Notes: generated from the sequence alone by a model not told the origin. 33,584 nt of DNA from Gammaproteobacteria bacterium (GCA_028281205.1 JANQKJ010000272.1:1-33584), one strand, 5' to 3'. Shown: positions 5,882 through 33,443, counted from the stretch's first letter. Made by a program: numbers and translations.

Positions 5882-5931
5882 AATATTAATAATTAGAAAA
5901 TGGTAGCGCAACTAAATGGCTGGGAGTAAAA

Positions 5932-6644: not shown

Positions 6645-6646
6645 TT

Positions 6647-7273: not shown

Positions 7274-7294
7274 CTTATATTAAGAAGAATAAAA

Positions 7295-8413: not shown

Positions 8414-8425
8414 AACTTTACTGCT

Positions 8426-10510: not shown

Positions 10511-10891
10511 TTAATTGTCCTCTTTATTTATATAATATTCTGCAAGTGCTTTCATATAATCCACAGCTAGTTTTACTTCATTATCACTAAGGCTATCGTT
10601 ACCTCCTCTAGGAGGCATCATTGTATCTTCAGGCCCAAAGAAACCATTTATGGCGTGATCATATAAAATATCAATAGGTTTCACTACTCTGTCTTGCCAA
10701 TCTTTTGCTTTTAATGGGTTAGGAGATTCGGCGATGCCATAAGCATGACAGCCTTCACAGCTATCTATCCATATGACTCTTCCTTGGACTAAATTAGCTT
10801 GCTCAAAATGAACATACGTATCCTCTTCAGACAATGCTTGTGTACTGCCGAAGAGGATACATATGAAAATTAGTGTTGACTTAGTAATCAT
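10511..10891 (-). CDS. Periplasmic monoheme cytochrome c, c5 family
   Basis: Signal peptide present, single CEGCH motif, c5-like tail (MMPPRGGNDSLSDNEVKLAVDYM). Lies 3 nt after the preceding gene. Confidence 0.85.
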   Translation of the reverse strand: MITKSTLIFICILFGSTQALSEEDTYVHFEQANLVQGRVIWIDSCEGCHAYGIAESPNPLKAKDWQDRVVKPIDILYDHAINGFFGPEDTMMPPRGGNDSLSDNEVKLAVDYMKALAEYYINKEDN

Positions 10892-10894
10892 TAA

Positions 10895-11503: not shown

Positions 11504-11581
11504 TGCTGTATGACTCCTATATTATGGTTGATACTAAAGTTAGTAGCTTGAGTGAAAATCAATACACAAATGCTACAAAGT

Positions 11582-12991: not shown

Positions 12992-13000
12992 AAATTAACA

Positions 13001-15010: not shown

Positions 15011-15042
15011 GCGTACGCAAATAATTAAGTAATATGTATTAA

Positions 15043-16377
15043 CTAAAAGTTAATACCACCCCAAAGCCAGAAGACTTTTTTATCTTCGCGGAAGTCATCG
15101 TCGCCATTGAAGTCTGCGTATTTAGCACCTAATGAGTAATGCTTGCCGAATTTCTTCACAGCAAGTAGATTAAGCTCATCACCATAATCATCAATTAACT
15201 GATCATCTTCTGGCTCGTATTCGTGGTAAACTGCAAGTAATTTGACACCATAGAACTTAGTTCCAACTGAAACGTAGGTGTCTTCGATTCCAGCAGTTCC
15301 TGCTGCACCATAAACACCTGATATTCCGGAGCCTAAGAACACATCAGCCCAACCTTGGAAAGCATGTAAAGTAGCAAAAGGTGTGATAAAACTTTCACCA
15401 TCGTCAACATCGCCTTCAAGCGTTTCCATGCCTACTTTAACTGTGATTGGTGCAAGGTTTGCAGCACCCGTTTTAAAACTCACGCCACCTTCAAGTAATG
15501 TGTAGTTTAAAGAACTGAAGTCATCTGCTTCTTTGTAATCATCTTGAGATGCATATTCGCCTGTGCCTAGCAATGTGATAGATTCAGACACAGGGAATTT
15601 ACCTTTTAAACGAATACCCGCGGTTTTGCGCGAATCATCTTCGCCAAATAACAGATTAACTTCTTCATCCCCTTCCCAGAGATAGTAGTAGCCTGTTGCA
15701 TCCAAGTACTTTAAGCCTGAATAGTTGATGTTAAAGTTGTTATTAGTGACATTGAAATCGCCTGCTGTGCCTGCTTGATCACCAAAAATGCGATTAACAT
15801 TTGTCTGGTGTGAATACATACCTCGTAAGCCATACTTTTTAGACTCTACTGTCACAAGAGTTGCGTCATAGGTTTGCTCGTTTTGTCTCCAACCAACATT
15901 GCCTATAAATCTATCGTTATCCCATTTTTGACGTTGCCGGCCATAGCGAATTAAAAAACTAGTATCTTCATAAGCATTACTAAATTGGATATATGCTTGG
16001 TTTAGTTCAGTTTCTTCAGGATCAGCAACAGTGTCGTATTCCAGATCTTCTTCGTCTAATGGGCCGGGGCCGTCATTATATTTTTTACTGCCTACTTCAC
16101 GAATGTCCTCCATTTCTGCAAATATCGAGAAACCATGAAAGTCTCCTGTTTGATAACCTAGGCGAGTGCGAATTGTTGATGCTTTAGCCTTATCACGATT
16201 TTCGCCCATTACAAGCGCGTCATCATCAACACCTTCGTAACGATAACGTACATTAGCTTTCAACTTTCCCCCAGTTAATGCTTTAGTAAATTCATCTACT
16301 TGACCGTCAGCAAATGTATAACTAGATTGCATGCCAAGTAGTAAGCAACTTGATAACGCAATGTTTAATAACTTCAT
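15043..16377 (-). CDS. Outer-membrane beta-barrel porin (family not assigned)
   Basis: Signal peptide ends in FA-DG. The sequence shows an alternating amphipathic pattern rich in Tyr, Gly and Asp. C-terminal WGGINF ends in Phe. GGGAGA SD. First gene of the minus-strand operon. Confidence 0.75.
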   Translation of the reverse strand: MKLLNIALSSCLLLGMQSSYTFADGQVDEFTKALTGGKLKANVRYRYEGVDDDALVMGENRDKAKASTIRTRLGYQTGDFHGFSIFAEMEDIREVGSKKYNDGPGPLDEEDLEYDTVADPEETELNQAYIQFSNAYEDTSFLIRYGRQRQKWDNDRFIGNVGWRQNEQTYDATLVTVESKKYGLRGMYSHQTNVNRIFGDQAGTAGDFNVTNNNFNINYSGLKYLDATGYYYLWEGDEEVNLLFGEDDSRKTAGIRLKGKFPVSESITLLGTGEYASQDDYKEADDFSSLNYTLLEGGVSFKTGAANLAPITVKVGMETLEGDVDDGESFITPFATLHAFQGWADVFLGSGISGVYGAAGTAGIEDTYVSVGTKFYGVKLLAVYHEYEPEDDQLIDDYGDELNLLAVKKFGKHYSLGAKYADFNGDDDFREDKKVFWLWGGINF

Positions 16378-16839: not shown

Positions 16840-17442
16840 TTGGAGAACTGTGGCTTGAATAAATATTTATCTGTAATGTTAGTCGACAATGACCCTGTTA
16901 GGTCTGCAATTGTTGAAGAATATTTATTAGATAATGGATATCAAGTTGTTCAAAGGCTTGATTCAACAACTGACTTAGCTACTCAAATTGAGCAGATTAA
17001 GCCTGATGTGATTGTTGTTGATATTGATTCACCTGATAGAGACACTTTAGAGGATGTGCATTTAGCATCCAAAGATGAGCCGCGTCCAATAGTTTTGTTC
17101 ACGGATGATAGTAATAAGAACACGATGGATAAAGCTATTAAAGCTGGGATTAGTGCATATGTTGTAGATGGTTTAAGTAAATCCAGGATTAAGCCTGTTA
17201 TTGAAGTTGCAATCGCTAGATTCGAAGAATACCAAGCTTTAAGAAATGAATTAGATGAAGCTAAATCCAAGCTTGCAGATAGAAAAGATATTGATATCGC
17301 AAAAGGCTTACTTCAAAAGCAACACCATATGACTGAAGAAAGTGCTTATCAAGCATTAAGGAAAATTGCTATGGATCAAAAAATCACTATTGGGGCTGCA
17401 GCGCGTAATTTAATATCCATTAGTAAAATTATCAATTCATGA
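16840..17442 (+). CDS. nasT: NasT-type response regulator with an ANTAR RNA-binding antiterminator domain
   Basis: REC domain (MLVDNDPVR, VIVVDIDSPDRD) followed by an ANTAR domain (RKDIDIAKGLLQKQHHMTEESAYQALRKIAMDQKITIGAAARNLI). The start is ambiguous: TTG 16840, TTG 16855 (GGAG 9 nt upstream) or ATG 16876. Confidence 0.85.
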   Translation: MENCGLNKYLSVMLVDNDPVRSAIVEEYLLDNGYQVVQRLDSTTDLATQIEQIKPDVIVVDIDSPDRDTLEDVHLASKDEPRPIVLFTDDSNKNTMDKAIKAGISAYVVDGLSKSRIKPVIEVAIARFEEYQALRNELDEAKSKLADRKDIDIAKGLLQKQHHMTEESAYQALRKIAMDQKITIGAAARNLISISKIINS

Positions 17443-17577: not shown

Positions 17578-17606
17578 AGATAATATATGTAAAATAGATT
17601 ATTGCA

Positions 17607-17659
17607 CTGAGAATTCGCAATGAAGTGAAGCTCAGAAATACGGTTAAGACAACGACGTC
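17607..17659 (+). promoter_or_regulatory. Candidate ANTAR (NasT) dual-hairpin element in the nas-operon leader
   Basis: P1 (17607-17635) is CUGAG-aa-UUCGC-AAUGAA-GUGAA-g-CUCAG, with a hexaloop having A1/G4. P2 (17648-17659) is aGAC-AACGAC-GUCa. The P2 loop and 3' arm form the terminator's 5' arm. Confidence 0.6.
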
Positions 17660-17702
17660 AGATTGTTCATTGGAAAATGAGCGATGTGCGTCGTTTTTTT
17701 TT
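17651..17702 (+). terminator. Leader intrinsic terminator (attenuator) upstream of the nrtA-like gene
   Basis: AACGACG (17651-57) pairs with CGTCGTT (17689-95). An internal helix forms between GTTCAT and ATGAGC. A run of nine T follows (17694-17702). The element lies 83 nt upstream of the ATG at 17785. Confidence 0.65.
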
Positions 17703-17784
17703 GCGCATGATTTAGTAAACGATGCTTACGTTTATTATTTGATCGCAAGCTGAATTATAACTAATAAGGTTCATCAATTTTAAG

Positions 17785-19203
17785 ATGAAAAAGAAAGAAC
17801 TTAATATAAATAAATCATTTGTCAGTTCGCGAAGAGAATTTATTAAAACTTCAATGGGTGTTGCTGGCGTTGGTTCTTTGCTGGGTATATCGGAGCTGGG
17901 TTATGGGTCAACACAAAGCAGGGGAAATAACATGCTAGAAAAAACCAACATTGATCTAGGATTTATACCGTTAAACGATTGCGCAAGTTTGGTGATCGCA
18001 AAAGAAAAATCCTATTTTGAAAAGCACGGTTTATCTGTCACTTTAAAGAAACACTCTTCATGGAGTGGAATTCGTGACAACGTGATGCTAGGTGCTTTAG
18101 ATGGTGCACATATGCTGGCTAGTATGCCAATTGCGACAACACTCGGTATCGGCACTGTAAAAAAAGCAACTATTACACCGTTTACGATGGCGTTAAATGG
18201 TAATGGTATTACAGTTTCACACGAATTATATGCGCGCATGCTGGAAGCTGATCCGGTAGCCATGCAAGAAAAACCTGTAACGGCTAAAGCACTTAAAAAA
18301 GTAATCGATGAAGATAAGGCTAAAGGCAGACCGCAAATGACATTTGCTACTGTTTTTCCAGTGTCTACTCATAATTATGAATTACGCTACTGGATGGCAG
18401 CGGCTGGCATTGACCCAGACAAAGATATTCGTCTGACTGTGATCCCCCCTTCATACATAGTTGAAAACTTAGAAGCGAGGACAATCGTTGGATGCTGTGT
18501 GGGCGAGCCTTGGAATGCTGTGGCGGTGAATGAAGGTGTGGGTAGGACGTTAATAACTAAGTATGAATTATGGAACAACAGCCCTGAAAAAGTGTTTGGT
18601 GTTAATCAGGAATGGGCTGAGAAACACCCCAATACATTGAATGCGATTTTAAAAGCGCTAATAGAGGCATCTATTTGGTTAGATGATTCTGAAAATAGAC
18701 TGCAAGCGGCACAAATCCTTGCTCAAGAAAACTATGTTAATGCACCGTTAGATGTAATGAAAATGTCTATGACCGGGACGTTTCAATATGCACGTCATTT
18801 ATCACCAGAGCCAATGCATGACTTTAATGTTTTTCATCGTTATTCAGCTAACTACCCATGGGCGAGTCATGCGCAGTGGTTTATTAGCCAAATGTTGCGA
18901 TGGGGGCAAATTGAAAGTCCTTTATCAATTTCCGAGTTAGCCGCAAGTGTGTATCGCCCTGATCTCTATGCGCGTGCAGCAAGTGAATTGAATATCAATA
19001 TTCCAAGCTCAATGGTCAAGCAGGAAGGTATACATGATAGCAGTTGGCAACTTTCCGAAGCAGGCAGTGGAATCATGATGGGGCCGGATAAGTTTTTTGA
19101 TCAGCGGGTTTTTAATCCAGCTCAAGTGGTGGACTACATTTACGATTTTGCTATTTCTGCTCCGCGTATGACTAAAGATGAATTAAATATAGTTAATTCA
19201 TAA
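17785..19203 (+). CDS. NrtA/NasS-family nitrate/nitrite-binding protein, the paralog in the nasS position, with a Tat-like signal
   Basis: NrtA-family blocks are shared with the 26747 paralog ([33 protein letters not shown]). The N-terminus SRREFIKTSMGVAGVGSLLGI matches the Tat consensus S/T-R-R-x-F-L-K. An in-frame internal ATG at 17932 is preceded by AGGGGA. Confidence 0.85.
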   Translation: MKKKELNINKSFVSSRREFIKTSMGVAGVGSLLGISELGYGSTQSRGNNMLEKTNIDLGFIPLNDCASLVIAKEKSYFEKHGLSVTLKKHSSWSGIRDNVMLGALDGAHMLASMPIATTLGIGTVKKATITPFTMALNGNGITVSHELYARMLEADPVAMQEKPVTAKALKKVIDEDKAKGRPQMTFATVFPVSTHNYELRYWMAAAGIDPDKDIRLTVIPPSYIVENLEARTIVGCCVGEPWNAVAVNEGVGRTLITKYELWNNSPEKVFGVNQEWAEKHPNTLNAILKALIEASIWLDDSENRLQAAQILAQENYVNAPLDVMKMSMTGTFQYARHLSPEPMHDFNVFHRYSANYPWASHAQWFISQMLRWGQIESPLSISELAASVYRPDLYARAASELNINIPSSMVKQEGIHDSSWQLSEAGSGIMMGPDKFFDQRVFNPAQVVDYIYDFAISAPRMTKDELNIVNS

Positions 19204-19230: not shown

Positions 19231-21663
19231 ATGAAGAAAAAATTAGTATTAATAGGCAATGGTATGGCAGGTATAAGGACTGTCGAAGAACTGCTTAAAA
19301 TTGATGATTCACTCTATGATATTACTGTTTTTGGTTCTGAACCTTATGGTAACTACAATCGTATTATGCTTTCTCCTTTACTGGCAAGCGAGAAAACGAT
19401 TGATGAGATCATGCTTAATGATAAGGAATGGTATGCGCAAAACGATATAACTTTACGTGCTGGTGTTACTGTTGAAAATATTGATCGTATCAACAAACAA
19501 GTCAACGCAGGTAACGTAAAAGAATCATATGATCGTTTAATCATTGCCACAGGTTCTAATCCATTTATGTTGCCAGTCCCAGGTGCTGACTTAGAGGGTG
19601 TTATCGGGTTTCGGGATATCGCTGACGTAGAAAATATGTTGACGACTGCAAAAAATTATAAAAATGCAGTCATTATCGGTGGTGGTTTATTAGGCTTGGA
19701 AGCTGCAAATGGACTTATGAAACAAGGTATGCATGTTTCTGTCGTGCATCTAAGTGGTTCACTAATGAATCGTCAGCTGGATAAAGCATCTTCGTTGCTG
19801 TTGAAAACTTCATTAGAAGAGCGTGGCATGAAGTTTTACATGCAAGCAGATACCGAATGCATTTTAGGTGATGGTCATGTGCAGGAAGTTAAATTTAAAG
19901 ATGGTACTCGTATCCCTGCAGACTTGGTTGTAATGGCTGCAGGTATAAAACCCAATATTGCTCTGGCTCAACAAGCAAATATTTACTGCGATCGTGGCAT
20001 TGTTGTAACTGATACCATGCAAACCTACGATCCAAATATTTATGCAGTCGGTGAATGTGTTCAGCACCGTAATGTATGTTACGGCTTAGTAGCACCATTA
20101 TTTGATCAAGCTAAAGTATGTGCCAATCACCTTGCTCAAATTGGAACCAAACAATATGAAGGTTCAGTAATTTCTACAAAGTTAAAAGTCACTGGAATTG
20201 ATTTGTTTTCGGCTGGGCAATTTGATGAGAAAGAAGGTGACGAAACACTTATTCTGCAAGATCCATCACAAGGCGTCTATAAGAAACTAGTTATTCGTGA
20301 TAATGCGATTAAAGGTGCTGTTCTTTATGGAGACACGCTAGATGGAAGCTGGTATTTCCAATTAATGCGGGAAAAAACCGATGTTTCGGGCTTTAGAAAT
20401 AATCTTCTGTTTGGGCAGCATGATTTAGGTGACGCAGGTCATGGAGAAGAGAGTCGTGTCATAGCCATGGGAGACGATGCGGAAATATGCGGTTGTAACG
20501 GTGTATGTAAAGGCGAAATTGTTTCTGCGATTGGTGAGAAGAAGTTATTCACACTTGATGATGTTCGCTCGCATACCAAAGCCTCTTCTTCTTGTGGTTC
20601 ATGTACTGCCTTGGTTGAAGCACTGCTTGCATCGACAGTGGGTGAGGGTTATGACGCAGCACCCAGTGTGAAACCAATATGCGGGTGTACTGAATATAGT
20701 CATGACCAAATCATTGCGGCGATTAAAGAACAACAATTAAAAGATATGCGCTCCGTATTTGAATATTTGAATTGGAAAACCGACGATGGTTGTCATATAT
20801 GTCGCCCGGCAGTTAATTATTATTTGCTTGCGCGATGGCCAGGTGAATATGTAGATGATAGTCAATCACGTTTCATTAATGAGCGTGCGCATGGAAATAT
20901 ACAAAAAGATGGAACTTATTCTGTAGTGCCACGAATGTTTGGCGGTTTATGCACACCAAATGATTTGCGTGCAATTGCTGATGCATGTGACAAGTATGAC
21001 GTTCCGGAAATGAAAGTCACTGGCGGCCAGCGTATCGACATGTTCGGCGTTAAAAAAGAGGATCTTCCGTCAATGTGGAGAGATCTTTCTGAGGCGGGTT
21101 TTGTTTCTGGCCATGCCTATGGCAAAGCATTACGCACTGTTAAAACATGCGCAGGTAAAACATGGTGCCGCTTTGGAACACAGGACTCTACTGATCTTGG
21201 CGTCAAATTAGAACAACTCACATGGGGTTCTTGGATGCCACATAAATTTAAGATGGCTGTTTCTGGTTGTCCCAGAAATTGTGCTGAAGCAACTATCAAA
21301 GACTTTGGTGTCGTCTGTGTTGATTCTGGTTATGAGTTACATGTCGGGGGTAATGGCGGAATTAAAGTCAGAGTGACTGACTTTCTCGTCAAAGTAGATA
21401 CAGAAGAAGAAGTGCTCGAATACAGTGCTGCATTTGCCCAACTTTATCGTGAAGAAGCGCATTATTTAGAGCGTACTGCGCCTTGGGTTGAACGTGTTGG
21501 CCTAGCTTACATTAAACAGCAAATCTTAGAAGATGAACAAAATCGCAAAGCGTTATATGAGCGTTTTAAATATTCGCAGCAATTTGCACAGATTGACCCA
21601 TGGAAACAACGTGCTGAAGGCAAGCAACGTCATGAGTTCACGCCATTAGAATTAGTAGGATAA
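19231..21663 (+). CDS. nirB: Assimilatory NAD(P)H nitrite reductase, large subunit
   Basis: 810 aa. Contains FAD/NAD Rossmann motifs, a BFD [2Fe-2S] domain (CGCNGVCKGEI...CGSC) and a sulfite/nitrite-reductase siroheme-4Fe-4S region (TCAGKTWCRFG, SGCPRNCAEA). Confidence 0.95.
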   Translation: MKKKLVLIGNGMAGIRTVEELLKIDDSLYDITVFGSEPYGNYNRIMLSPLLASEKTIDEIMLNDKEWYAQNDITLRAGVTVENIDRINKQVNAGNVKESYDRLIIATGSNPFMLPVPGADLEGVIGFRDIADVENMLTTAKNYKNAVIIGGGLLGLEAANGLMKQGMHVSVVHLSGSLMNRQLDKASSLLLKTSLEERGMKFYMQADTECILGDGHVQEVKFKDGTRIPADLVVMAAGIKPNIALAQQANIYCDRGIVVTDTMQTYDPNIYAVGECVQHRNVCYGLVAPLFDQAKVCANHLAQIGTKQYEGSVISTKLKVTGIDLFSAGQFDEKEGDETLILQDPSQGVYKKLVIRDNAIKGAVLYGDTLDGSWYFQLMREKTDVSGFRNNLLFGQHDLGDAGHGEESRVIAMGDDAEICGCNGVCKGEIVSAIGEKKLFTLDDVRSHTKASSSCGSCTALVEALLASTVGEGYDAAPSVKPICGCTEYSHDQIIAAIKEQQLKDMRSVFEYLNWKTDDGCHICRPAVNYYLLARWPGEYVDDSQSRFINERAHGNIQKDGTYSVVPRMFGGLCTPNDLRAIADACDKYDVPEMKVTGGQRIDMFGVKKEDLPSMWRDLSEAGFVSGHAYGKALRTVKTCAGKTWCRFGTQDSTDLGVKLEQLTWGSWMPHKFKMAVSGCPRNCAEATIKDFGVVCVDSGYELHVGGNGGIKVRVTDFLVKVDTEEEVLEYSAAFAQLYREEAHYLERTAPWVERVGLAYIKQQILEDEQNRKALYERFKYSQQFAQIDPWKQRAEGKQRHEFTPLELVG

Positions 21664-21667
21664 AAAT

Positions 21668-22009
21668 ATGTTGGCAAAGAAAAAAGTCCAAGCAAGCGAA
21701 TGGATAGAAGTGGTTGCTCTAAAAGATATACCTAAATTAGGTTCAAGAGTAATAAAGACAGATGTTATGAATATTGCTGTGTTTAGAACAGCAAAAGATG
21801 AAGTATTTGCAGTTAAAGATCAATGCCCTCATAAGCAAGGGCCTTTATCACAAGGGATTGTGCATGGTTCATCAGTGACTTGCCCATTACATAATTGGAA
21901 AATCGATTTGGCTAGTGGTCAAGCATTAGGTCCCGACGAAGGGTGTACAAATATTTATCCAGTACGTGTGGAAGATGAACGCGTTTATTTAAAAGTACCG
22001 GCGGGTTAG
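21668..22009 (+). CDS. nirD: Nitrite reductase small subunit (Rieske-like fold)
   Basis: 113 aa. Contains CPHKQGPLSQG...CPLHNW. Lies 4 nt after nirB. Confidence 0.9.
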   Translation: MLAKKKVQASEWIEVVALKDIPKLGSRVIKTDVMNIAVFRTAKDEVFAVKDQCPHKQGPLSQGIVHGSSVTCPLHNWKIDLASGQALGPDEGCTNIYPVRVEDERVYLKVPAG

Positions 22010-22019
22010 AGGCAGCCGT

Positions 22020-24206
22020 ATGTTATTTGGAAGGAAGAATAAGAATCCAATTAAAATTGCAGACAAAGGTGTGGTCGAATGGAAATATGCAACCTGTGGC
22101 TACTGTTCAACGGGTTGTTCGATTGAAGTCGGTATTGATAAAAAAGGTGAAGCAGTTGCTTCCAGGGGAGTTGCTGATGCTGATGTTAACCGTGGCAAGC
22201 TATGTATTAAAGGTATATATGAGCATGAATTGTTTCGTAAAACCAGGGGTCGTGGAAATAAACCATTAATACGTGAAAATAGATGGGACGAATTTCAAGA
22301 AACAAACTGGGATACAGCATTAAGTAAAACTGCTGATGAAATAAAACGTATCCAACAGCAGTATGGCCGCGATGCTTTTTCGATTGTATCCACTGGTCAG
22401 ATAATGACGGAAGAATTTTACACTTTGGGTAAACTTGCCCGAGGCGTGATTGGTACTAATAATTACGATGGCAACACTACACTGTGTATGTCGTCAGCAG
22501 TTTCCGGTTATAAACGCTCATTTGGTTCAGATGGCCCACCTGGATGTTACGAAGACTTTGAACATACCGAATGTTTATTGGCGTTTGGATCTAATTTGCC
22601 CGAACAGCATCCAATTATCTATTGGCGCTTAATGGATGTACGTGAAAAACACAACTTTCCATTAATTGTTATTGATCCCCGTGTGACTATGTTTGCTCAG
22701 CAAGCAGACATGCATTTGGCTATAAATCCTGGAACCGACTTGGTGCTATTAAATGCTTTGGCACATGTTATTTTAGCTGAAAAACTCCATAAGCCAGAAT
22801 ATATTGAAGCATATACTCAAGGCTACCAAGAATTTGCTGAACTTGTTGCGCAATATGACCCTGTAACAGCTTCAAAAATCTGTGGCATTGATGAAGATAC
22901 TATTCGTAATGTCGCACGAGTATTTGCCAAGGCAGGAGCGGCCATGTCTATTTGGACTATGGGTATTAACCAAAGTACTCACGGTTCCGATGGTGTCGCG
23001 GCAATTAATAATTTGCATTTAATTACCGGCAATTTAGGTAAACCAGGCGCAGCTTCTTTATCAATTACCGGTCAGTGTAACGCAATGGGTACACGTGAGT
23101 GGTCATCATGTTCTGGTTTGCCGGGATATCGTTCGTTAGAGAATGAACAAGACCGAAAAGAAATATCTGAGTTTTGGGGAGTAGATCCAGAATTCTTCCC
23201 TAAAGAACGCGGCATGTTCATGACAGATATTTTACCCGCCATCGAAACTGGAGAGGTTAAAGGCCTATGGCTAATTGCCACCAACCCAATGACCTCGATG
23301 GCAAATACTGCACGTATCCGTAAGACATTAGAGAAACTTGAATTTCTCGTTGTACAAGATGCTTATCAGGACGTTGAAACTAATCAATATAGTCACGTTT
23401 TTTTGCCTGCTGCTATTTGGGCGGAAAAAGAAGGGTGTTTCACAAACACCGAAAGGCGTGTGAATATTATTCGCAATGTCTGTGAACCCTATGGAGAATC
23501 AAAAACTGATTTATGGATATTTAATCAAATGGCTAAACAATTTGAGCGCGGCCAAAATGTAATATTTCCTGAATCAGCAGAAGGTGTGTTCGAAGAGCTA
23601 AAAACATTATCTAAGGGGCGTATGTTAGATTACTCAGGTATGTCATACGAAAAAATTGAACAGTCGCGTGGCATCCAATGGCCGTGTAATGAAGAACAAT
23701 CACCTCAAGGCACGCAACGATTATACACAGATGGTGTTTTCCAAACTGCTTCCGGCAAAGCAAACTTATTAGCACTACCTTTTATTGATAATAACGAACG
23801 TCCCGATAAGGATTATCCATTTTGGTTGAATACGGGGCGGGTAGTTGAGCATTTTCATACGCGCACCCGAACTGGCAAAGTCGCGAATGGAAATAAATTC
23901 AGTCCAACACCATATATGGAAATGAATCCCGATGCTGCAGCAGAATTAAATATTCAACATGGTACTTATGCACGTTTAAGTTCGCGTCGTGGTGATGCCA
24001 TCGTTATGGTGCAGTTAACTCAACGTGTAGCAAAAGATACGGTATTTGTTCCATTTCATTTCCATGAGTGTGTGAACCGACTTGCATTAGGCTTACTAGA
24101 CCCGCATTCACGCCAACCTGCATATAAACAAAGTGCAGTACATATAGAGAGAATAGAGAACCAGCAGGACGCAGCACAAAAGAACGCTATGGCTAGGAGT
24201 TATTAA
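22020..24206 (+). CDS. nasA: Assimilatory nitrate reductase catalytic subunit (molybdopterin, NarB/NasA type), cytoplasmic
   Basis: N-terminal 4Fe-4S motif CGYCSTGCS...C. MopB-family core. The 728-aa length lacks the C-terminal 2Fe-2S extension. No twin-arginine signal is present. Confidence 0.9.
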   Translation: MLFGRKNKNPIKIADKGVVEWKYATCGYCSTGCSIEVGIDKKGEAVASRGVADADVNRGKLCIKGIYEHELFRKTRGRGNKPLIRENRWDEFQETNWDTALSKTADEIKRIQQQYGRDAFSIVSTGQIMTEEFYTLGKLARGVIGTNNYDGNTTLCMSSAVSGYKRSFGSDGPPGCYEDFEHTECLLAFGSNLPEQHPIIYWRLMDVREKHNFPLIVIDPRVTMFAQQADMHLAINPGTDLVLLNALAHVILAEKLHKPEYIEAYTQGYQEFAELVAQYDPVTASKICGIDEDTIRNVARVFAKAGAAMSIWTMGINQSTHGSDGVAAINNLHLITGNLGKPGAASLSITGQCNAMGTREWSSCSGLPGYRSLENEQDRKEISEFWGVDPEFFPKERGMFMTDILPAIETGEVKGLWLIATNPMTSMANTARIRKTLEKLEFLVVQDAYQDVETNQYSHVFLPAAIWAEKEGCFTNTERRVNIIRNVCEPYGESKTDLWIFNQMAKQFERGQNVIFPESAEGVFEELKTLSKGRMLDYSGMSYEKIEQSRGIQWPCNEEQSPQGTQRLYTDGVFQTASGKANLLALPFIDNNERPDKDYPFWLNTGRVVEHFHTRTRTGKVANGNKFSPTPYMEMNPDAAAELNIQHGTYARLSSRRGDAIVMVQLTQRVAKDTVFVPFHFHECVNRLALGLLDPHSRQPAYKQSAVHIERIENQQDAAQKNAMARSY

Positions 24207-26041
24207 TGTTTAAGTATCAACGCCCAAATGAACAAAGTTATGCATTTTTACCTCTGGTAAATCATCCTGAGAAAAATCGTTATGGGGACTCAATTGAAAC
24301 AGTACCAGAAGGACATGAACTAAGAGGTAAAAGCTTAAACATCAATAATGATGATGGTATTGGGGATAATGCTAACCGATACAAACAACATGGCTTCTAC
24401 TTTACAGCCGATAATTGTATTTCTTGTCATGCCTGTGAGGCTGCGTGCTCAGAAAAAAATGATTTGCCGTCACATATTGCGTTTCGCTCTGTTGGTTATG
24501 TTGAAGGTGGTTCTTATCCTGCTTACAGCCGGTTGAATATTTCTATGGCATGTAATCATTGTGATGATCCGGTATGTTTAAAAGGTTGTCCAACACGTGC
24601 TTATACAAAATTTGCTGAATATGGCGCAGTTTTACAAGATCCGGATATTTGTTTTGGCTGTGGTTATTGTACATGGGTATGTCCATATAATGCGCCTCAG
24701 CTTGATCAAGAAGCAGGACAAGTTGAAAAATGTAATATGTGTGTTGATCGACTTGAAGTGGGCTTAAAGCCAGCCTGTGTATCTGCATGTTTAGCAGGTG
24801 CACTAGATTTTGGTGTAATTGAAACAACGCCTGAGAATAGAACCCAATTAGAAACAACTATCCCAGGCTTTCCTAATAGTGATATCACACACCCTAATAT
24901 CCGATTTCAGCAAACTAAAAGTTTACCTAATGAAATGAAGCGTACAGATAGTATGCCCATCCGTTATGAAAAAGATTTACAAGGTGAGTATCAATCTAAA
25001 GTTGATGAAAAATCGCAAGCAATGCAGTGGAGTTTTAAAAAACTAAGTACTCGAGAAAATCCTTTAGTGGTATTTACATTGATTTCACAATTAGTAATAG
25101 GCGCATTTATTCTATTATTTATTGGACCAAAAATAGGTATTGCAACAATCACTGCCACCTCCAACCCAATAGTGTGGCCATTATTTCTGTTTGCACTTAT
25201 TAGTGTTCAAACGCTCGCGCTGGTATTATCAACCATGCATCTGGGAAAACCGCATCGTTTTTATCGTGCATTCAATAATTTGAAATACTCACCAGTCAGT
25301 CGCGAAGTTGCAGGGATTGCAGTGTTCTATAATTTTTTAGGTGCTTACACGTGTCTAACTGGCTTGCCAGTGTTGTTTACATGGCTACCTGATGCAGTGT
25401 TGTCGACGTTAGTCGTTGTTACTGGTTGGGGTGCGACTTTATCTGGTTTAGCAGCATTATATTTCATGCATGCAATCTATCGTATACCGGCACGACCTTA
25501 TTGGAATCACTGGTCAGTTTTGAATGCATTTTATGGCTCAATGTTGTCATTAGGCCCATTATTAATTGGAAGTTTGTACTTTTTAATGGCTATGTTAGTT
25601 GGTGAGAATAACTTGCAGGTGCTAAATAATATAGCGTTGATTATAGCGATAGGTATAACCATTGAGTTGCTTGGTTTATATGCACATGCTCGCTACCTAA
25701 AACATCATAGTGGTGAATCTCAAGCATCTCATTACCAGCAGATAACACAATTTGGAAAAACTTATTGGTTGCGAAATATTTTACTGTCATTGTCAGCTAT
25801 TAGTATGTTTGCTATGAGCGTAATTAATTTTGAAATAAATTTAGCCTTAATTGCTTGGTGGGCAGGCTGTATTATGATTATCATAGCAGCAGTGTTAGGA
25901 CGTAGTTTATTTTATGCGTTAGTGATACCGACGACTATGCCTGGTGCTTTCTTTTGGAAGAATAAAGGTTTTGAAGAGCATGCTCGGGAGTCGGGCTTGG
26001 CGAGTAGAACGGATGCAGGTGTTCTTATTAACGCACATTAA
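24206..26041 (+). CDS. Fusion of a four-cluster 4Fe-4S ferredoxin domain (DmsB/NrfC-like) to an 8-TM DmsC-like quinol-interacting anchor
   Basis: Cys groups CISCHACEAAC, CNHCDDPVCLKGCP, CFGCGYCTWVCP and CNMC...CVSAC. About 8 hydrophobic helices follow, with the DmsC-like motif STMHLGKPHRFYRAF...SPVSRE. The start overlaps the nasA stop (TAATG) and is preceded by AGGAG. No signal peptide. Confidence 0.8.
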   Translation: MFKYQRPNEQSYAFLPLVNHPEKNRYGDSIETVPEGHELRGKSLNINNDDGIGDNANRYKQHGFYFTADNCISCHACEAACSEKNDLPSHIAFRSVGYVEGGSYPAYSRLNISMACNHCDDPVCLKGCPTRAYTKFAEYGAVLQDPDICFGCGYCTWVCPYNAPQLDQEAGQVEKCNMCVDRLEVGLKPACVSACLAGALDFGVIETTPENRTQLETTIPGFPNSDITHPNIRFQQTKSLPNEMKRTDSMPIRYEKDLQGEYQSKVDEKSQAMQWSFKKLSTRENPLVVFTLISQLVIGAFILLFIGPKIGIATITATSNPIVWPLFLFALISVQTLALVLSTMHLGKPHRFYRAFNNLKYSPVSREVAGIAVFYNFLGAYTCLTGLPVLFTWLPDAVLSTLVVVTGWGATLSGLAALYFMHAIYRIPARPYWNHWSVLNAFYGSMLSLGPLLIGSLYFLMAMLVGENNLQVLNNIALIIAIGITIELLGLYAHARYLKHHSGESQASHYQQITQFGKTYWLRNILLSLSAISMFAMSVINFEINLALIAWWAGCIMIIIAAVLGRSLFYALVIPTTMPGAFFWKNKGFEEHARESGLASRTDAGVLINAH

Positions 26042-26063: not shown

Positions 26064-26432
26064 GTGCGTACACCTTATATATCATCAAAAAAATTATCTG
26101 ACATTGATAGTGAATTGGAAAAAGCTGTTTTTCTTGCTAGCTATTATTCCAAAAAACAAAAAATCCGTCGAAAACTTGCAGCAGTAATACTTTTATTTAA
26201 ACATGGTTTAAGAGGTTTGCTATTTAGTTGGCCACTATATTTATTGCCATTTTCAGTATTAGCAATGCCTGAACAGTTTAAATATTTATTTATCCTGTTT
26301 TTGTCACCAGGTTTATATGTGTCATTCATTATTTTAAAAAAAGGTATTTTAGAAGATTATTCGAATTTTGTTGCTGGTCATTTGTTAAATGATGGTTATC
26401 AACATATGTTGTTATTTGCGAAACAACTTTAG
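26064..26432 (+). CDS. Hypothetical small membrane protein
   Basis: GTG-initiated 122-aa ORF with 2-3 hydrophobic segments. It has no recognisable family or clear SD, so coding status is uncertain. Confidence 0.3.
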   Translation: MRTPYISSKKLSDIDSELEKAVFLASYYSKKQKIRRKLAAVILLFKHGLRGLLFSWPLYLLPFSVLAMPEQFKYLFILFLSPGLYVSFIILKKGILEDYSNFVAGHLLNDGYQHMLLFAKQL

Positions 26433-26590: not shown

Positions 26591-26627
26591 GAGTGTAAAG
26601 TAAGTTTAGAATTTTTAATTAATTGCA

Positions 26628-26667
26628 ATCACCAACGAAGGTGATCAGCAAAACAGACAGAGGTGTC
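26628..26667 (+). promoter_or_regulatory. Candidate ANTAR (NasT) dual-hairpin element in the nrt-operon leader
   Basis: P1 (26628-26645) is AUCACC-AACGAA-GGUGAU, a perfect 6-bp stem with a hexaloop having A1/G4. P2 (26656-26667) is aGAC-AGAGGU-GUCa, which overlaps the terminator's 5' arm. Confidence 0.6.
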
Positions 26668-26711
26668 AACGTGTACCCGTTATTGGGCGGCACGTTGACA
26701 CCTTTTTTTTT
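26662..26711 (+). terminator. Leader intrinsic terminator (attenuator) upstream of nrtA
   Basis: Perfect 12-bp stem between GGTGTCAACGTG (26662-73) and CACGTTGACACC (26691-702), followed by nine T (26703-11). It lies 36 nt upstream of the nrtA ATG. Confidence 0.8.
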
Positions 26712-26746
26712 GAGAAAAAGTTTCAATTATTTAAGGAGTGATTTTT

Positions 26747-28162
26747 ATGAAACATGTTTGCAGTTCTCTCCCGCTAGCTTCTGGAGGTTCGCAAGAATAT
26801 GTCAAACATTTTTTGCTAAGTGTGATGATTATTATCAGTGCCGTCATTGCAAATAATGTAAACGCAGAAAAACTTGGATACCCGGAGAAAGAAGAACTGA
26901 AATTTGGGTTTATTAAATTAACAGACATGGCACCGATTGCTATTGCTTATGAAAATGGATATTTCGAGGATGAAGGTCTCTACGTCACAATTGAAGCACA
27001 AGCAAACTGGAAAGTATTGTTAGATGGAGTCATTGACGGTCAGCTAGACGGAGCTCATATGCTGGCGGGCCAACCAATTGCTGCCACCATGGGGTTTGGT
27101 ACTAAAGCGCACATCATTACACCATTTTCTATGGACTTAAATGGCAATGGCATTACGGTATCAAATGAGATCTGGGCCCAAATGAAACCAAATATTCCTA
27201 AAATGGACGACGGTAGGCCTGTGCATCCAATCAAGGCGGGTGCGTTAAAACCTGTGGTTGAAAAGTATAAAGATGAAGGTAAGCCATTTAATATGGGTAT
27301 GGTATTTCCTGTATCAACACATAACTATGAATTGCGTTATTGGTTGGCCGCAGGTGGAATCCATCCTGGATACTATGCACCACATAAAGGAGATATTTCT
27401 GGGCAAATAGATGCCGATGCTTTGCTTTCTGTGACGCCTCCACCGCAAATGCCTGCAACATTAGAAGCAGGGACTATATATGGTTATTGCGTGGGTGAAC
27501 CATGGAACCAACAGGCTGTATTTAAAGGCATTGGCGTACCAGTGATTACTGACTATGAAATCTGGAAAAATAATCCCGAAAAAGTATTTGGAATTACTGC
27601 TGAATTTGCAGAAAAATATCCCAATACGACAATAAGAATCGTGCGTGCATTAATCCGTGCCGCAATGTGGTTGGATGAAAATGACAATGCTAATCGTCCA
27701 GCTGCTGTAAAAATTCTATCTCAGTCGAATTATGTCGGTGCAGATTACGACGTTATAGCAAATAGTATGACGGGTACATTTGAATATGAAAAAGGGGACA
27801 AACGCGAAGTTCCAGACTTCAATGTATTCTTTAGATATAACGCTACTTACCCATATTATTCAGATGCAATTTGGTATCTAACGCAAATGCGCCGCTGGGG
27901 CCAAATTTCTGAAGACAAGTCTGATGATTGGTATAAAGATATGGCAGCAAAAGTTTATAAGCCAGATATTTATGCTAAAGCTGCCTTGTCATTAATAGAA
28001 GAAGGTCTAGCAGATGCAAAAGATTTTCCTGACTTTGCTACTGAAGATGGATTTAAAGATCCTCAAACAGAGTTTATTGATGGCATCACATTCGATGGAA
28101 CGAAACCAAATGATTACATTGATATGTTTCCAATCGGTTTGAAGTCAGGCGATAAAGTTTAA
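26747..28162 (+). CDS. nrtA: Nitrate ABC transporter periplasmic substrate-binding protein (NrtA/NasF)
   Basis: The ATG at 26747 is preceded by AAGGAG with 8-nt spacing; the ORF track starts at GTG 26738. The signal peptide ends in [10 protein letters not shown]. NrtA blocks: [33 protein letters not shown]. Confidence 0.9.
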
Positions 28163-28189: not shown

Positions 28190-29185
28190 ATGAAGGCTGC
28201 AACATCATTAACTACAAAGCTAAATATGACGGGCATGTCTCCAAAGATGTCTGGCTTAATTGCTGGTTCGTTACAAAATCTGGTGATTCCTCTAGCTGGA
28301 ATTGTGTTTTTTTTAGCTTTCTGGTCGGTTGCAGCCTCAAACATCAATACATCGTTAGGGAAGTTTCCTGGCCCTAATGCGGTATGGACGCAATTAAATA
28401 GCCTTTATGTCGAACATAACGAAGAGAGAACCAAAGAACAGGCATTTTACGAGCGGCAGAAAAAACGCAATGCTGAACGTGTTGCGCAAGATCCAGATTA
28501 CGTGCCAAAAATTCGTTCCTATACTGGTAAAGAGACATTTTTAGATCAAATTGTCACGAGCTTGCTTACTGTTATGAGTGGATTTTTATTAGCTGCTGTT
28601 ATAGCTATCCCGTTAGGAATTGCTATTGGTTTAAGTAAAACGCTAAATACTGCATTTAACCCTGTTATTCAAATTTTCAAACCCGTGTCTCCATTGGCCT
28701 GGTTACCTTTGGTAACTATGGTTGTTAGTGCCCTTTATGCTACACCTGATCCGGTGATACCAAAATCATTTTTAAATTCGATGATAACGGTAACGTTATG
28801 TTGTTTATGGCCCATGGTAATCAACACATCGGTCGGTGTAGCATCTATTAATTCTGATTTAGTAAATGTAAGTCGGGTATTACGTTTGCCAGCATTGAAG
28901 CATATCCAAAAAATTGTCTTACCTGCATCAATACCTATGATATTTACTGGCATGCGCACATCTTTAGGGATTGCATGGATGGTGCTCATTGCAGCAGAAA
29001 TGCTCGCACAAAATCCTGGTCTAGGTAAATTTGTATGGGATGAATTTCAAAATGGCAGTTCTGATTCTTTGGGAAGAATTATGGCAGCAGTTGTTGTTAT
29101 TGGTGCCATAGGTTTTTTCTTAGACCGTTCAATGCTGCAAATTCAAAAATTTGTGTCCTGGGATAAAACATCTGCTAGTAGATAA
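28190..29185 (+). CDS. nrtB: Nitrate ABC transporter permease (NrtB/NasE)
   Basis: 331 aa and polytopic. Contains a BPD-transporter EAA-like region (AAEMLAQNPGLGKFVW). Lies between the binding protein and the ATPase. Confidence 0.9.
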   Translation: MKAATSLTTKLNMTGMSPKMSGLIAGSLQNLVIPLAGIVFFLAFWSVAASNINTSLGKFPGPNAVWTQLNSLYVEHNEERTKEQAFYERQKKRNAERVAQDPDYVPKIRSYTGKETFLDQIVTSLLTVMSGFLLAAVIAIPLGIAIGLSKTLNTAFNPVIQIFKPVSPLAWLPLVTMVVSALYATPDPVIPKSFLNSMITVTLCCLWPMVINTSVGVASINSDLVNVSRVLRLPALKHIQKIVLPASIPMIFTGMRTSLGIAWMVLIAAEMLAQNPGLGKFVWDEFQNGSSDSLGRIMAAVVVIGAIGFFLDRSMLQIQKFVSWDKTSASR

Positions 29186-29227: not shown

Positions 29228-30076
29228 ATGAGTGAGTTATTAAATATTAGTGGAGTTGACATGATTTTCCCAACGCCTAAGGGAGATTTCACAGCGTTAA
29301 CAGATATTAACTTAAAGATAAGTAAAGGTGAGTTTGTGTCGTTAATCGGTCATTCGGGATGCGGTAAGTCGACAGTATTAAATATTGTTGCTGGCTTACA
29401 TCAGGCAACTATTGGTGGTGTGATATTAAATGGTAAGGAAGTATCTGAGCCAGGGCCAGAACGCGCAGTTGTATTTCAAAATCATTCTTTACTTCCGTGG
29501 TTAAGTGCTTATGAAAATGTAGAGCTTGCTGTTAAACAGGTATTTGGTAAGTCAAAATCAAAAGCTGATACAAAAGACTGGATTGAACATAATTTACGTT
29601 TAGTGCATATGGATCATGCTATGCACAAACGACCTGATGAGTTATCAGGAGGCATGAAGCAAAGAGTGGGCATAGCACGGGCATTAGCTATGCAGCCAGA
29701 AATTTTATTAATGGATGAACCCTTTGGTGCTTTAGATGCATTGACACGTTCACATATGCAAGATTCATTGATGGAAATTCAAAATGAATTGAATAACACT
29801 GTAATCATGATCACTCATGACGTTGACGAAGCTGTTCTGCTATCAGATCGTATTGTTATGATGACTAATGGCCCAGCAGCTACTATTGGTGAAATACTTG
29901 AGATTAATCTTGAACGTCCAAGAGATAGAATTAGTTTAGCAAGTGATGTCGAATATACCAAGCTTAGACAGGCAGTATTAACCTTCTTGTATGAGAAACA
30001 GCGTAAAGTGGAGCCTATAAATAGTATAAAAAAGTCTAGTGATGTAGTTCATAACAGTAAAAATGAAGCCGCGTAA
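29228..30076 (+). CDS. nrtD: Nitrate ABC transporter ATP-binding protein (NrtD/NasD)
   Basis: Walker A GHSGCGKST, signature LSGGMKQRVGIARAL, Walker B ILLMDEPFGALD and H-loop ITHD. Confidence 0.9.
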   Translation: MSELLNISGVDMIFPTPKGDFTALTDINLKISKGEFVSLIGHSGCGKSTVLNIVAGLHQATIGGVILNGKEVSEPGPERAVVFQNHSLLPWLSAYENVELAVKQVFGKSKSKADTKDWIEHNLRLVHMDHAMHKRPDELSGGMKQRVGIARALAMQPEILLMDEPFGALDALTRSHMQDSLMEIQNELNNTVIMITHDVDEAVLLSDRIVMMTNGPAATIGEILEINLERPRDRISLASDVEYTKLRQAVLTFLYEKQRKVEPINSIKKSSDVVHNSKNEAA

Positions 30077-32006: not shown

Positions 32007-33443
32007 TTAAACCAGTACCGCTTTTAACTCTTGGTATGCTTCTAATGCACGGTCTCTTGCTTTACTGTGATCAACAATAGGTTGGGGATAATCTTTGCCC
32101 ATAGTAATGCCAGCTGAGGACAGTACCTCATCAGGTGCCAACCAGGGTGAATGAATATATTTCTTTGGTAAGCTTTTAAGTTCAGGTATCCAAGTACGAA
32201 CGTAATCGCCTTGGGGATCAAACTTTTCACCTTGCAGCACAGGGTTGAATACTCTGAAGTAGGGCGCGGCATCGGCACCGCAACCTGCAACCCATTGCCA
32301 GCCAGCAGCATTGTTAGCCAGATTAGCATCAACCAGAGTGTCCCAAAACCATTTTTCGCCTTGTTGCCAGGGAATTAACAAGTCTTTAATTAAGAATGAT
32401 GCGACAATCATTCTTACTCTATTATGCATCCAGCCTGTTTTCCATAATTCACGCATGCCAGCATCTACAATCGGATAACCAGTTTGTCCCTGTTGCCATT
32501 TTTGTAGGGCTTTTTTATTGGGTTTCCACGGGAACTTGTCAAACTCGGGTCTAAAAGGCTTGTCAGGAAAATCTGGCCAGTGTACTAATAAGTGATATGA
32601 AAAATCTCTCCAAATTAACTGGCGCAAATATGCTTCTCCGCTGTCAGGAATATTGTGTTGATAGTTCTTAATTGTGGTCCAAACTTGCCTTGGACTGATT
32701 TCGCCAAAATGTAAATGTGCAGATAGTCTTGAAGTGCCTGTCACATCAGGTCGGTTACGAAGTATTGAATATTTTGATCCTGCATGTGTAATAAATTCAC
32801 TCAAATGTTGATGAGCACCATTTTCTCCAGGTAACCAATAATCATTAAACTGATGTGCCCAATTGGGTTGTTTAGGGAGTAGTTTCCAGTCGTTGAGTAA
32901 ATCACTGCTAATCTTTTTTTTGTATACCGCTAATGACTCAGGAGGGCTGATGGGTTGTGATGGTGAACCAGCTTTTAAGCACGATTTGTAGAAAGGTGTG
33001 AAAACTTTATAAGGCTGATCGTTACCAGTTCGTATATCTTCAGGCTCATGCAATAAGTAACCTTTAAAACGCTTGACTTCAATTTGATCACAAAACCGGT
33101 CATGAACTTGTTTTTCTAGACGACTTGCATAAGGTTCATACTGGCGCGTGAAATATAAACTATCTGCCCCTGTTTCATTGATAATATTATCCAACTCTTC
33201 TATGGCATTGCCTTTGCGTAAAATTAATCTACCACCTAATTCACTGATTGAATGACTAAATTCATTTAAACTGTGGTGTAGCCACCAACGACTGGCAGAC
33301 CCTATCGCCCATTTATCTCTAGGGTTTTGGTCGAGTATATAGACAGTTATGATAGGTCTGTCTGTTTTTACCGCAGCAGATAACGTAGGATTATCATGTA
33401 TTCTAAGGTCTTGTCGGAGCCAGTAAATTAATGGATTTTGCAT
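32007..33443 (-). CDS. phrB: Deoxyribodipyrimidine photolyase (class I CPD type)
   Basis: 478 aa. N-terminal LIYWLRQDLRIHDNPTL. FAD-binding region WREF-like IWRDFSY, TGYPIVDAGMRELWKTGWMHNRVRMIVASFL and WQWVAGCGADAAPYFRVFNP. Confidence 0.95.
   Translation of the reverse strand: MQNPLIYWLRQDLRIHDNPTLSAAVKTDRPIITVYILDQNPRDKWAIGSASRWWLHHSLNEFSHSISELGGRLILRKGNAIEELDNIINETGADSLYFTRQYEPYASRLEKQVHDRFCDQIEVKRFKGYLLHEPEDIRTGNDQPYKVFTPFYKSCLKAGSPSQPISPPESLAVYKKKISSDLLNDWKLLPKQPNWAHQFNDYWLPGENGAHQHLSEFITHAGSKYSILRNRPDVTGTSRLSAHLHFGEISPRQVWTTIKNYQHNIPDSGEAYLRQLIWRDFSYHLLVHWPDFPDKPFRPEFDKFPWKPNKKALQKWQQGQTGYPIVDAGMRELWKTGWMHNRVRMIVASFLIKDLLIPWQQGEKWFWDTLVDANLANNAAGWQWVAGCGADAAPYFRVFNPVLQGEKFDPQGDYVRTWIPELKSLPKKYIHSPWLAPDEVLSSAGITMGKDYPQPIVDHSKARDRALEAYQELKAVLV

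Follow-up and report, generated by a model that had tools for sequence, protein, structure and literature searches.

A putative quinol-fed assimilatory nitrate reductase formed by NasA and a fused, inverted DmsBC-type membrane module in a gammaproteobacterial nitrate-assimilation cluster

The nasA-fusion gene pair

The DNA considered here is a stretch of 33.6 kb (33,584 nucleotides; GCA_028281205.1, JANQKJ010000272.1:1-33584) from a gammaproteobacterium, referred to as the window, which has a G+C content of about 38% and carries on its plus strand a nitrate-assimilation cluster (Table 1). In this cluster two overlapping genes are of particular interest. The first, nasA, codes for the catalytic subunit of a cytoplasmic nitrate reductase, while the second codes for a fusion protein joining an iron-sulfur (Fe-S) domain to a membrane anchor of the DmsC/PsrC type; together, the two products are proposed to feed electrons from the quinone pool into nitrate assimilation. 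The setting at nasA is assimilatory, with NirB, NirD, NrtA, NrtB, NrtC and a NasT-like regulator all present. At the junction of the two genes (GCTAGGAGTTATTAATGT), the TAA of nasA (24204-24206) and the ATG of the fusion gene (24206-24208) share a nucleotide in a TAATG overlap, and an AGGAG is found at 24195-24199, 6 nt 5' of the ATG; as read from this arrangement, the fusion gene is predicted to be translationally coupled to nasA. An earlier note on this DNA, made by a model from the sequence alone, had described the nasA stop as overlapped by a gene for a four-cluster protein fused to an eight-helix DmsC-type anchor with an HLGKP...SREV block, and all its elements are confirmed, at the positions given, by the present analysis.

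The NasA catalytic subunit

Three Pfam domains (Molybdop_Fe4S4, Molybdopterin and Molydop_binding) account for the NasA protein, in which the N-terminal [4Fe-4S] cluster, FS0, is represented by the motif C26-x2-C-x3-C, and no Fer2_BFD or other C-terminal 2Fe-2S domain is detected by Pfam. The N-terminus (MLFGRKNKNPIKIADKGVVEWKYATC) has neither a twin-arginine motif nor a hydrophobic stretch. Moreover, a twin-arginine translocation (Tat) motif is absent from the N-termini of all 67 NasA orthologues inspected, which share the sequence MLFGRKxKNPIKIADKGVVEWKY(A/T)T-Cys. The earlier description of NasA as a short form of 728 aa, devoid of both a Tat signal and a C-terminal 2Fe-2S domain, is therefore borne out in the window and in its relatives.

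The assignment to a substrate requires some caution with profile models. The top NCBIfam match is TIGR01591 (Fdh-alpha), at 605 bits and under its cut-off of 666, and the best nitrate reductase models, NasC (535 bits) and haloarchaeal NasA (485 bits), also score under their equivalog cut-offs, so that the protein falls outside every curated subfamily. In addition, no solved structure of an assimilatory NasA was matched by sequence. The molybdenum-ligand context is more informative: LCMSSAV of NasA aligns with LCMASAV, the context of Cys140 in D. desulfuricans NapA, whereas FdhF, retrieved in the same search, presents Cys-His. The Cys-Met pair shared with NapA indicates that the 728-aa protein is a nitrate reductase; a formate dehydrogenase identity was considered and ruled out, both by this pair (Cys-Met, not Cys/Sec-His) and by the nitrate-assimilation context. 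Models of respiratory enzymes give low scores, namely 129 bits for DmsA/YnfE against a cut-off of 778, with 23% identity to E. coli DmsA, 41 bits for narG against 1084 and 49 for narH against 524.

Anatomy and fold of the fusion protein

Proceeding from the N-terminus, the 611-aa fusion protein consists of a clade-specific extension (residues 1-60), a PsrB/DmsB-type domain (61-235), a beta-rich linker (236-284) and the anchor (285-571). Pfam recognizes Fer4_11 at residues 113-204 and DmsC at residues 283-572, and the DmsB model TIGR02951 aligns to residues 61-206 with 160 bits, for a cut-off of 214; no Pfam or NCBIfam model covers the protein as a family. By direct comparison, residues 61-232 are collinear with E. 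coli DmsB, at 39% identity, and residues 284-578 are collinear with all eight helices of E. coli DmsC, at 23% identity. The protein contains 16 cysteines arranged in four groups, enough for four [4Fe-4S] clusters and invariant or nearly so across 104 fused homologues, as well as the blocks MHLGKPHRF and SREV.

These similarities are reinforced by structure prediction. In particular, an AlphaFold2 model built on the diverse alignment of 104 sequences (pLDDT 91.9, pTM 0.91) contains eight helices in the anchor, at residues 285-310, 323-343, 363-386, 396-424, 437-465, 471-500, 517-539 and 544-571; this alignment replaced a shallow one of 65 sequences, all at least 67% identical, with which the pLDDT over residues 61-210 was about 27. 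When the two halves of the model were compared with the PDB using Foldseek, the N-terminal half matched PsrB (2vpw_B, template-modelling (TM) score 0.81, root-mean-square deviation 2.3 A) and also ArrB and FdnH, and the C-terminal half, for which no solved structure was matched by sequence, matched PsrC (2vpw_C, TM score 0.68) and also ActC.

Orientation in the membrane

The fusion protein shows no signal sequence in the 70 residues ahead of its first Cys motif, a segment that is polar and has no usable twin-arginine motif. If eight helices follow a cytoplasmic Fe-S domain, the C-terminus and loops 2-3, 4-5 and 6-7 necessarily lie on the cytoplasmic side as well. Among 65 close relatives, these segments hold on average 14.3 Lys+Arg, versus 0.57 in loops 1-2, 3-4, 5-6 and 7-8, and in the 104 fused proteins, with identities down to about 18%, the averages are 11.0 on the Fe-S side versus 0.66 on the opposite side, with the bias present in every one of the 104. 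In the homologous segments of E. coli DmsC, whose termini are periplasmic, the bias is reversed (2 versus 8 Lys+Arg). The lack of an export signal, combined with this mirror image of the positive-inside bias, would place NasA, together with the Fe-S domain and the quinone loop HLGKP, on the cytoplasmic face, opposite to the situation in DmsABC, as the earlier note had proposed for NasA and the Fe-S domain. In other words, the fusion module should be a flipped DmsBC that faces the cytoplasm, with its HLGKP loop beside the Fe-S domain.

The predicted quinone site

Two residues of DmsC deserve specific attention. His345 of the fusion protein is the equivalent of DmsC His65, whose replacement abolishes quinol oxidation according to a published review, and it is present in 104 of 104 fused homologues; Glu367, equivalent to DmsC Glu87, is present in 103, with Asp in the remaining one. 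The anchor carries, in short, the quinol-site residues of DmsC and has a predicted quinone site. A role limited to tethering is unlikely, because both residues are kept despite a divergence to about 20% identity, and a mere tether needs neither. The link to the quinone pool that had been suggested from the window alone finds support in this near-invariance, from which we infer a quinol:nitrate activity.

Distribution and synteny

At the level of 90% clusters, more than 3,500 proteins belong to the fusion family, with an identical architecture in all of the top 120, and a species-level survey, taking one genome per species, recovers the fusion in at least 589 genomes. The nasA-fusion pair occurs in Gammaproteobacteria, Betaproteobacteria and Nitrospirota. 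The best 80 matches are labelled as Thiotrichaceae, Acidiferrobacterales, Thiohalobacter, Chromatiales, Ectothiorhodospiraceae, Thioalkalispiraceae, Thiobacillaceae, Gallionellaceae, Nitrosomonadales and Burkholderiales. The suggestion of a chemolithoautotrophic host agrees with the taxonomic names borne by most close relatives and may apply to the organism of the window; the family reaches other lineages as well.

Adjacency of the two genes is nearly complete when approached from either side. Among the best 80 loci together with L002-L005, nasA lies directly upstream of the fusion gene in all 77 with room upstream. Starting from NasA, the fusion gene is found at most 400 nt downstream in 74 of 77 metagenome loci and at 440 nt in one more (75 of 77 in total); of the other two, one is a contig that ends after a further 311 nt, and a single locus (L151) is a true exception. 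There (3400-5831), a NasA of 78% identity is followed by a cytochrome-c-like open reading frame (ORF) and a Tat-signal NrfC-like Fe-S protein in place of the fusion, an arrangement that may be a rearrangement or a chimeric contig. Since the same two genes recur in hundreds of genomes, their arrangement is not due to chance. The survey that the earlier note had called for thus returned near-complete adjacency, which, in addition, persists where NirBD is missing.

Specifically, NirBD usually adjoins the pair, and NirB of more than 50% identity is found in 67 of 80 metagenome loci, but NirBD is absent from the flanks in L002/L003 (fusion 81% identical) and in L034, where nasA and the fusion gene are kept, and in L002 and L095 the pair stands alongside a ferredoxin-type nitrite reductase and a CysJ-like protein. 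In Nitrospirota metagenome-assembled genomes (MAGs), the gene order is P-II, major facilitator superfamily (MFS) transporter, NasA, fusion, NirB, NirD, MobA, MoeA. A fusion of 42% identity still follows a NasA of 59% identity, and fusions of only 24-35% identity are still beside a NasA gene or a NarK-type transporter. Those of 24-32% identity adjoin a NasA-type gene in reversed order, either within clusters that contain NarK, NirBD, NrtABCD, Amt and P-II or together with a ferredoxin-type nitrite reductase and a CysJ-like protein. One more distant fusion lies 3' of an MFS transporter C-terminus with the nitrate/nitrite-porter-like motif GAGGNFGA, and in one distant group (P0200) NasA is not adjacent. 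The persistence of the pair without NirBD and at low identity indicates that the partner of the fusion is NasA, and not a given nitrite reductase, and that the partnership is old.

Further arrangements were recorded. In the betaproteobacterial loci L029, L035, L041 and L046, nasA, the fusion gene and a small ORF sit between nirB and nirD, which suggests a very tight co-expression of all five genes. In L069 (2337-4124) and L079 (2573-4633), a second, distantly NasA-like (34-36%) molybdoenzyme gene is found 3' of the fusion, and the contig starts just before the fusion gene. A collection of plasmids and chromids yielded only ordinary DmsBC and an Azospirillum SoeABC-like locus.

Comparison with known systems

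The closest functional and topological precedent is SoeABC, of the type of Allochromatium vinosum and Aquifex aeolicus, which likewise combines a molybdenum bis(pyranopterin guanine dinucleotide) (Mo-bisPGD) subunit without Tat signal, a four-cluster Fe-S subunit and an eight-helix NrfD/DmsC-like anchor predicted to face the cytoplasm. A published review predicts the SoeABC anchor to be inverted and N-side-facing, with the quinone site on the N-side. The similarity extends to the charge bias and to the loop, which has the common form HLG(R/K)PxRAxRA...S(W)LSRE and reads AHLGRPxRAxRA...SWLSRE in SoeC; in the Azospirillum SoeBC-like pair, whose members are 32% and 29% identical to the two fusion halves, the SoeC loop (AHLGRPERAWRALSQWRSSWLSRE) nearly equals the fused-family consensus. 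The differences are also clear: the catalytic subunit of the window is of the NasA type, with 29% identity to the Azospirillum SoeA-like protein over 252 residues; electrons would flow from quinol to substrate here, and from substrate to quinone in SoeABC; and here the B and C modules are fused, the role appears assimilatory and no sulfur-metabolism context is seen. The Azospirillum locus itself (L096 5966-10692, Azospirillum sp. TSH58 plasmid p04) is a SoeABC-like operon beside xsc (sulfoacetaldehyde acetyltransferase), coding for a 998-aa molybdoenzyme without obvious Tat motif, a four-cluster protein and an anchor annotated as DmsC/YnfH, and its gene content is consistent with oxidation of the sulfite released from sulfoacetaldehyde.

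With DmsABC and PsrABC the system of the window shares the order of modules, the folds (39% identity to DmsB and PsrB at a TM score of 0.81 for the Fe-S domain; collinearity with DmsC and PsrC at 0.68 for the anchor) and the quinol-site His and Glu of DmsC, while it differs in the absence of a Tat signal, in a module flipped to the cytoplasm, in the B-C fusion and in a catalytic subunit of the Nas/Nap/Fdh clade. The classical assimilatory enzymes, i.e. NarB (ferredoxin), Klebsiella NasAC, Bacillus NasBC and Paracoccus NasBGC (NADH), belong to the same catalytic family, have the same Cys-Met molybdenum ligation and resemble the present operon in their partners (nirBD, nrt transporter, NasT-type control), but they are soluble and fed by ferredoxin, flavodoxin or NADH, whereas the conserved partner here is a membrane quinone-anchor fusion. 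As for NarGHI, it is quinol-dependent, as predicted here, and has a cytoplasmic nitrate active site and a four-cluster Fe-S subunit; unlike the system of the window, it uses a NarG-type subunit and oxidises quinol on the periplasmic side, electrogenically, through the dihaem cytochrome b NarI, in place of a DmsC-type anchor without haem and with its predicted quinone site on the cytoplasmic side.

According to a published paper, Nas enzymes take their electrons from NADH, which is the accepted view, and a published family-wide survey reports that enzymes of the NasA/NapA/AioA/Fdh clade lack any association with four-cluster or anchor subunits. Full-text literature searches found no description linking NasA to a DmsB/DmsC/NrfD-type partner; as neither a paper nor a Pfam family or NCBIfam model was found for the arrangement, its presentation as not previously studied still holds. 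It would appear that a complex iron-sulfur molybdoenzyme (CISM)-type module has been recruited, inverted and fused, to an assimilatory nitrate reductase, the formation of a complex being suggested by the coupling of the genes and by their near-obligate synteny.

Proposed mechanism and alternative explanations

We propose, with a probability of roughly 0.6, that NasA and the fusion protein constitute a membrane-bound, cytoplasm-facing quinol:nitrate oxidoreductase for nitrate assimilation. Behind this proposal stand computed features, namely the anatomy of the genes, their cofactor motifs, the folds, the lack of export signals, the reversed charge bias, the conserved quinol site and near-obligate synteny, and what it adds to them is a physical complex, quinol as the donor, a direction of electron flow and a physiological benefit. 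Specifically, quinol would be oxidised at the His345/Glu367 site on the cytoplasmic face, and its two electrons would reach FS0 of NasA by way of the [4Fe-4S] clusters, four in number, in the fused PsrB/DmsB-type domain and go on from there to Mo-bisPGD, where nitrate imported by NrtABC would be reduced to nitrite; NirBD would then convert nitrite to ammonium with NAD(P)H. With quinol oxidised and nitrate reduced at one and the same membrane face, no charge separation is expected from the reaction, in contrast to the electrogenic one of NarGHI. The NO3-/NO2- couple lies at about +420 mV and the ubiquinone/ubiquinol couple at about +100 mV, so that the transfer from quinol to nitrate is favourable. 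As for the benefit, two of the eight electrons needed for nitrate assimilation would come from the quinone pool, sparing NAD(P)H or reduced ferredoxin, which in sulfur and iron oxidisers would be costly products of reverse electron flow.

Some considerations weigh against this proposal. The [4Fe-4S] clusters of DmsB-type proteins are usually of low potential, which implies uphill steps from ubiquinol, although NarH is an example of such steps being tolerated. No cultured host is found among the named matches, all of which are MAGs, also in a homologue search seeded with a Gallionellaceae sequence. Finally, the same operon codes for NirB, with its NADH/FAD/2Fe-2S module, and for a NirD that keeps the Rieske ligands, and the two could feed NasA in the manner of Paracoccus. 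The earlier note had overlooked this possible NADH route within the operon, as well as the precedent of the inverted SoeABC anchor.

The NADH route leads to an alternative which we regard as unlikely but not negligible, namely that electrons pass from NADH to the flavin and 2Fe-2S centre of NirB, to the NirD/NasG Rieske protein and then to NasA, the fusion serving as a tether near the importer, as a back-up or overflow route, or as a redox sensor. A published paper on Paracoccus NasBGC offers the model, with NasB and NasG delivering NADH electrons to the nitrate reductase, and the genes are suitably placed: nirB and a nirD with intact Rieske ligands lie immediately 5' in the operon, NirBD adjoins in most related loci, at the NirB frequency given above, and in some betaproteobacterial loci nirB and nirD enclose nasA, the fusion gene and the small ORF. 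This explanation has difficulty, however, with the loci in which the pair is kept without flanking NirBD (L002/L003, L034) or with a ferredoxin-type nitrite reductase (L095), and neither four clusters nor a quinol-site His and Glu held invariant across sequences of about 20% identity would be needed by a pure tether. A different kind of alternative, which appears distinctly improbable, keeps the quinol-to-nitrate chemistry and changes its purpose: the enzyme would not be mainly assimilatory, acting as a non-energy-conserving electron sink for redox balancing, or as a cytoplasmic respiratory enzyme that gains energy via proton pathways in its NrfD-like anchor. Wiring to the quinone pool does resemble a respiratory enzyme, ion conduction has been proposed for NrfD-like subunits in published reviews, and NirBD is also able to serve dissimilatory nitrite ammonification according to published genome papers. 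Yet the context is consistently assimilatory, with NrtABC and a NasT-type regulator, to which relatives add genes for P-II and Amt, and a quinone site on the same side as the active site speaks against a redox loop.

Short enzymes of the NasA/NarB type classically depend on ferredoxin or flavodoxin. It could be argued that NasA is fed by such a soluble donor, like NarB, or by a Flp-like flavoprotein resembling the N-terminal half of NirB and encoded on the minus strand at 13001-15010, the fusion being unrelated to nitrate reduction. A precedent exists in Bradyrhizobium japonicum, where, as reported in a published paper, growth on nitrate requires flp, implying that Flp donates to NasC, and where flp and the gene of a single-domain globin are encoded together; in the window, too, a single divergent operon codes for both a flavoprotein and a globin. 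We consider this very improbable, as the operon with flavoprotein, cytochrome and globin stands beside nasA in 0 of 174 related loci, where only NirB gives cross-matches, while the fusion gene is essentially always present and, by prediction, translationally coupled to nasA.

Regulatory leaders and other genes of the window

Table 1. Features of the nitrate-assimilation cluster, with coordinates counted from the first nucleotide of the window
Feature	Coordinates	Strand	Evidence
NasT-like response regulator (antiterminator)	16840..17442	+	receiver domain; 88% identity to L002 gene
Leader 5' of the nirBD-nasA operon, terminator-like hairpin and T-run	17590..17705	+	reads ACGACGTCAG...GCGTCGTTTTTTTTTT
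NrtA-like nitrate/nitrite-binding protein, twin-arginine-type signal	17785..19203	+	Pfam NMT1_2, 307 bits; SRREFIKTSMGVAGVG in N-terminus
NirB, NAD(P)H nitrite reductase large subunit	19231..21663	+	TIGR02374, 935 bits (cut-off 578)
NirD/NasG-type Rieske protein	21668..22009	+	TIGR02378, 103 bits (cut-off 75); CPH...CPLH ligands
NasA, cytoplasmic Mo-bisPGD nitrate reductase catalytic subunit, short form, 728 aa	22020..24206	+	three Pfam domains
Fusion protein, 611 aa, Fe-S domain and DmsC/PsrC-type anchor	24206..26041	+	Pfam, TIGR02951, AlphaFold2, Foldseek
Small membrane protein, 122 aa, invariant FSWPLYLL	26064..26432	+	no Pfam/NCBIfam family
Leader before nrtA, AACGAA-hexaloop hairpin followed by strong terminator hairpin and T9	26620..26712	+	fold
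NrtA, periplasmic nitrate-binding protein of the ABC importer	26738..28162	+	Pfam NMT1_2, 323 bits
NrtB, ABC permease	28190..29185	+	Pfam BPD_transp_1
NrtC/D, ABC ATPase	29228..30076	+	Pfam ABC_tran

Two leader regions of the cluster contain terminator-like structures (Table 1). We infer that the one 5' of the nirBD-nasA operon is a NasT target. The leader before nrtA has a minimum free energy of -57.2 kcal/mol, with a z-score of -6.6, and its hexaloop shows A at position 1 and G at position 4, like ANTAR targets; it is likely a second NasT/ANTAR target. A search of the window with Rfam returned no known RNA family, and a simple terminator scan did not pick up the large-loop hairpin at 26660-26712. 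The L002 counterpart of the NasT-like gene codes for a product with Response_reg and ANTAR domains. Taken together, the NasT-like gene and the two terminator leaders suggest that the cluster is under antitermination control.

The Rieske ligands listed for the NirD/NasG-type protein were read from its translation and are kept. Two binding proteins of the NrtA family are encoded in the window: the NrtA-like one has the twin-arginine-type signal and occupies the place of NasS in other nas clusters, and the other has a Sec-type signal and is the first of the ATP-binding cassette (ABC) transporter genes. The 122-aa ORF that follows the fusion gene has about two hydrophobic helices and no match in Pfam or NCBIfam. 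Copies in two other loci are 43-74% identical. In 45 related loci the ORF comes directly 3' of the fusion gene, and about half of the loci lack it; its product may help to assemble the complex or serve in it as an accessory subunit. Kinship with a hypothetical protein, also of 122 aa, encoded 3' of the Azospirillum SoeC was considered, and on comparison the two proved unrelated.

Divergently oriented on the minus strand, an operon at 10103-16377 codes for an Alginate_exp-type porin, a 669-aa flavoprotein, a 469-aa multihaem cytochrome c, a Tll0287-like protein, a small cytochrome c and a single-domain globin. Its products resemble, by analogy, a transmembrane conduit of electrons from NADH to the periplasm or a nitric oxide-detoxification unit like Bradyrhizobium Flp-Bjgb. 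The flavoprotein matches only the N-terminal half of NirB (FAD/NAD and BFD 2Fe-2S), and its C-terminal part of about 190 aa (13001-13570, minus strand) is hydrophobic, with about 4-5 predicted helices and conserved-looking His residues, e.g. in HICLGVLVVVTLVAH; no family was found for this part, which might be a membrane domain or a haem-b domain attached to an NADH oxidoreductase. As a conserved donor to NasA the flavoprotein was ruled out, since it is not syntenic in relatives. The rest of the window contains an ordinary chemotaxis cluster (27-9259, plus strand), with an Aer2-like methyl-accepting chemotaxis protein, CheY, CheA, CheW, a 156-aa ORF, CheD, CheB and CheR, and, at the far end, a photolyase (32007-33443, minus strand) and a HAD hydrolase.

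Conclusions

The picture that emerges, and that we hold to be somewhat more probable than its negation, is that of a third class of bacterial assimilatory nitrate reductase, membrane-bound, cytoplasm-facing and fed by the quinone pool via a fused and inverted DmsBC, which would occur widely among uncultured Gamma- and Betaproteobacteria that oxidise sulfur and iron, among Nitrospirota and in other lineages, and which would free its hosts from the need for reverse electron transport when nitrate assimilation begins. The public names given to the fusion protein (P0030, P0287, P0014 and others) include 'aspartate carbamoyltransferase', 'DMSO reductase iron-sulfur subunit', 'dimethyl sulfoxide reductase anchor subunit' and 'formate dehydrogenase iron-sulfur subunit'. 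Labels of this kind, either generic or wrong, could yield false calls of dimethyl sulfoxide respiration in studies of MAGs and metagenomes.

If the proposal is true, a NasA fed by quinol would stand as a third type beside the textbook donors of assimilatory nitrate reductases, i.e. ferredoxin/flavodoxin and NAD(P)H, and the fusion family would provide, after SoeABC, a second and far better populated case of a cytoplasm-facing module of the NrfD/DmsC type. It would also mean that the energy cost of growth on nitrate has to be revised for the lithoautotrophs that abound in sediments, groundwater and vents.

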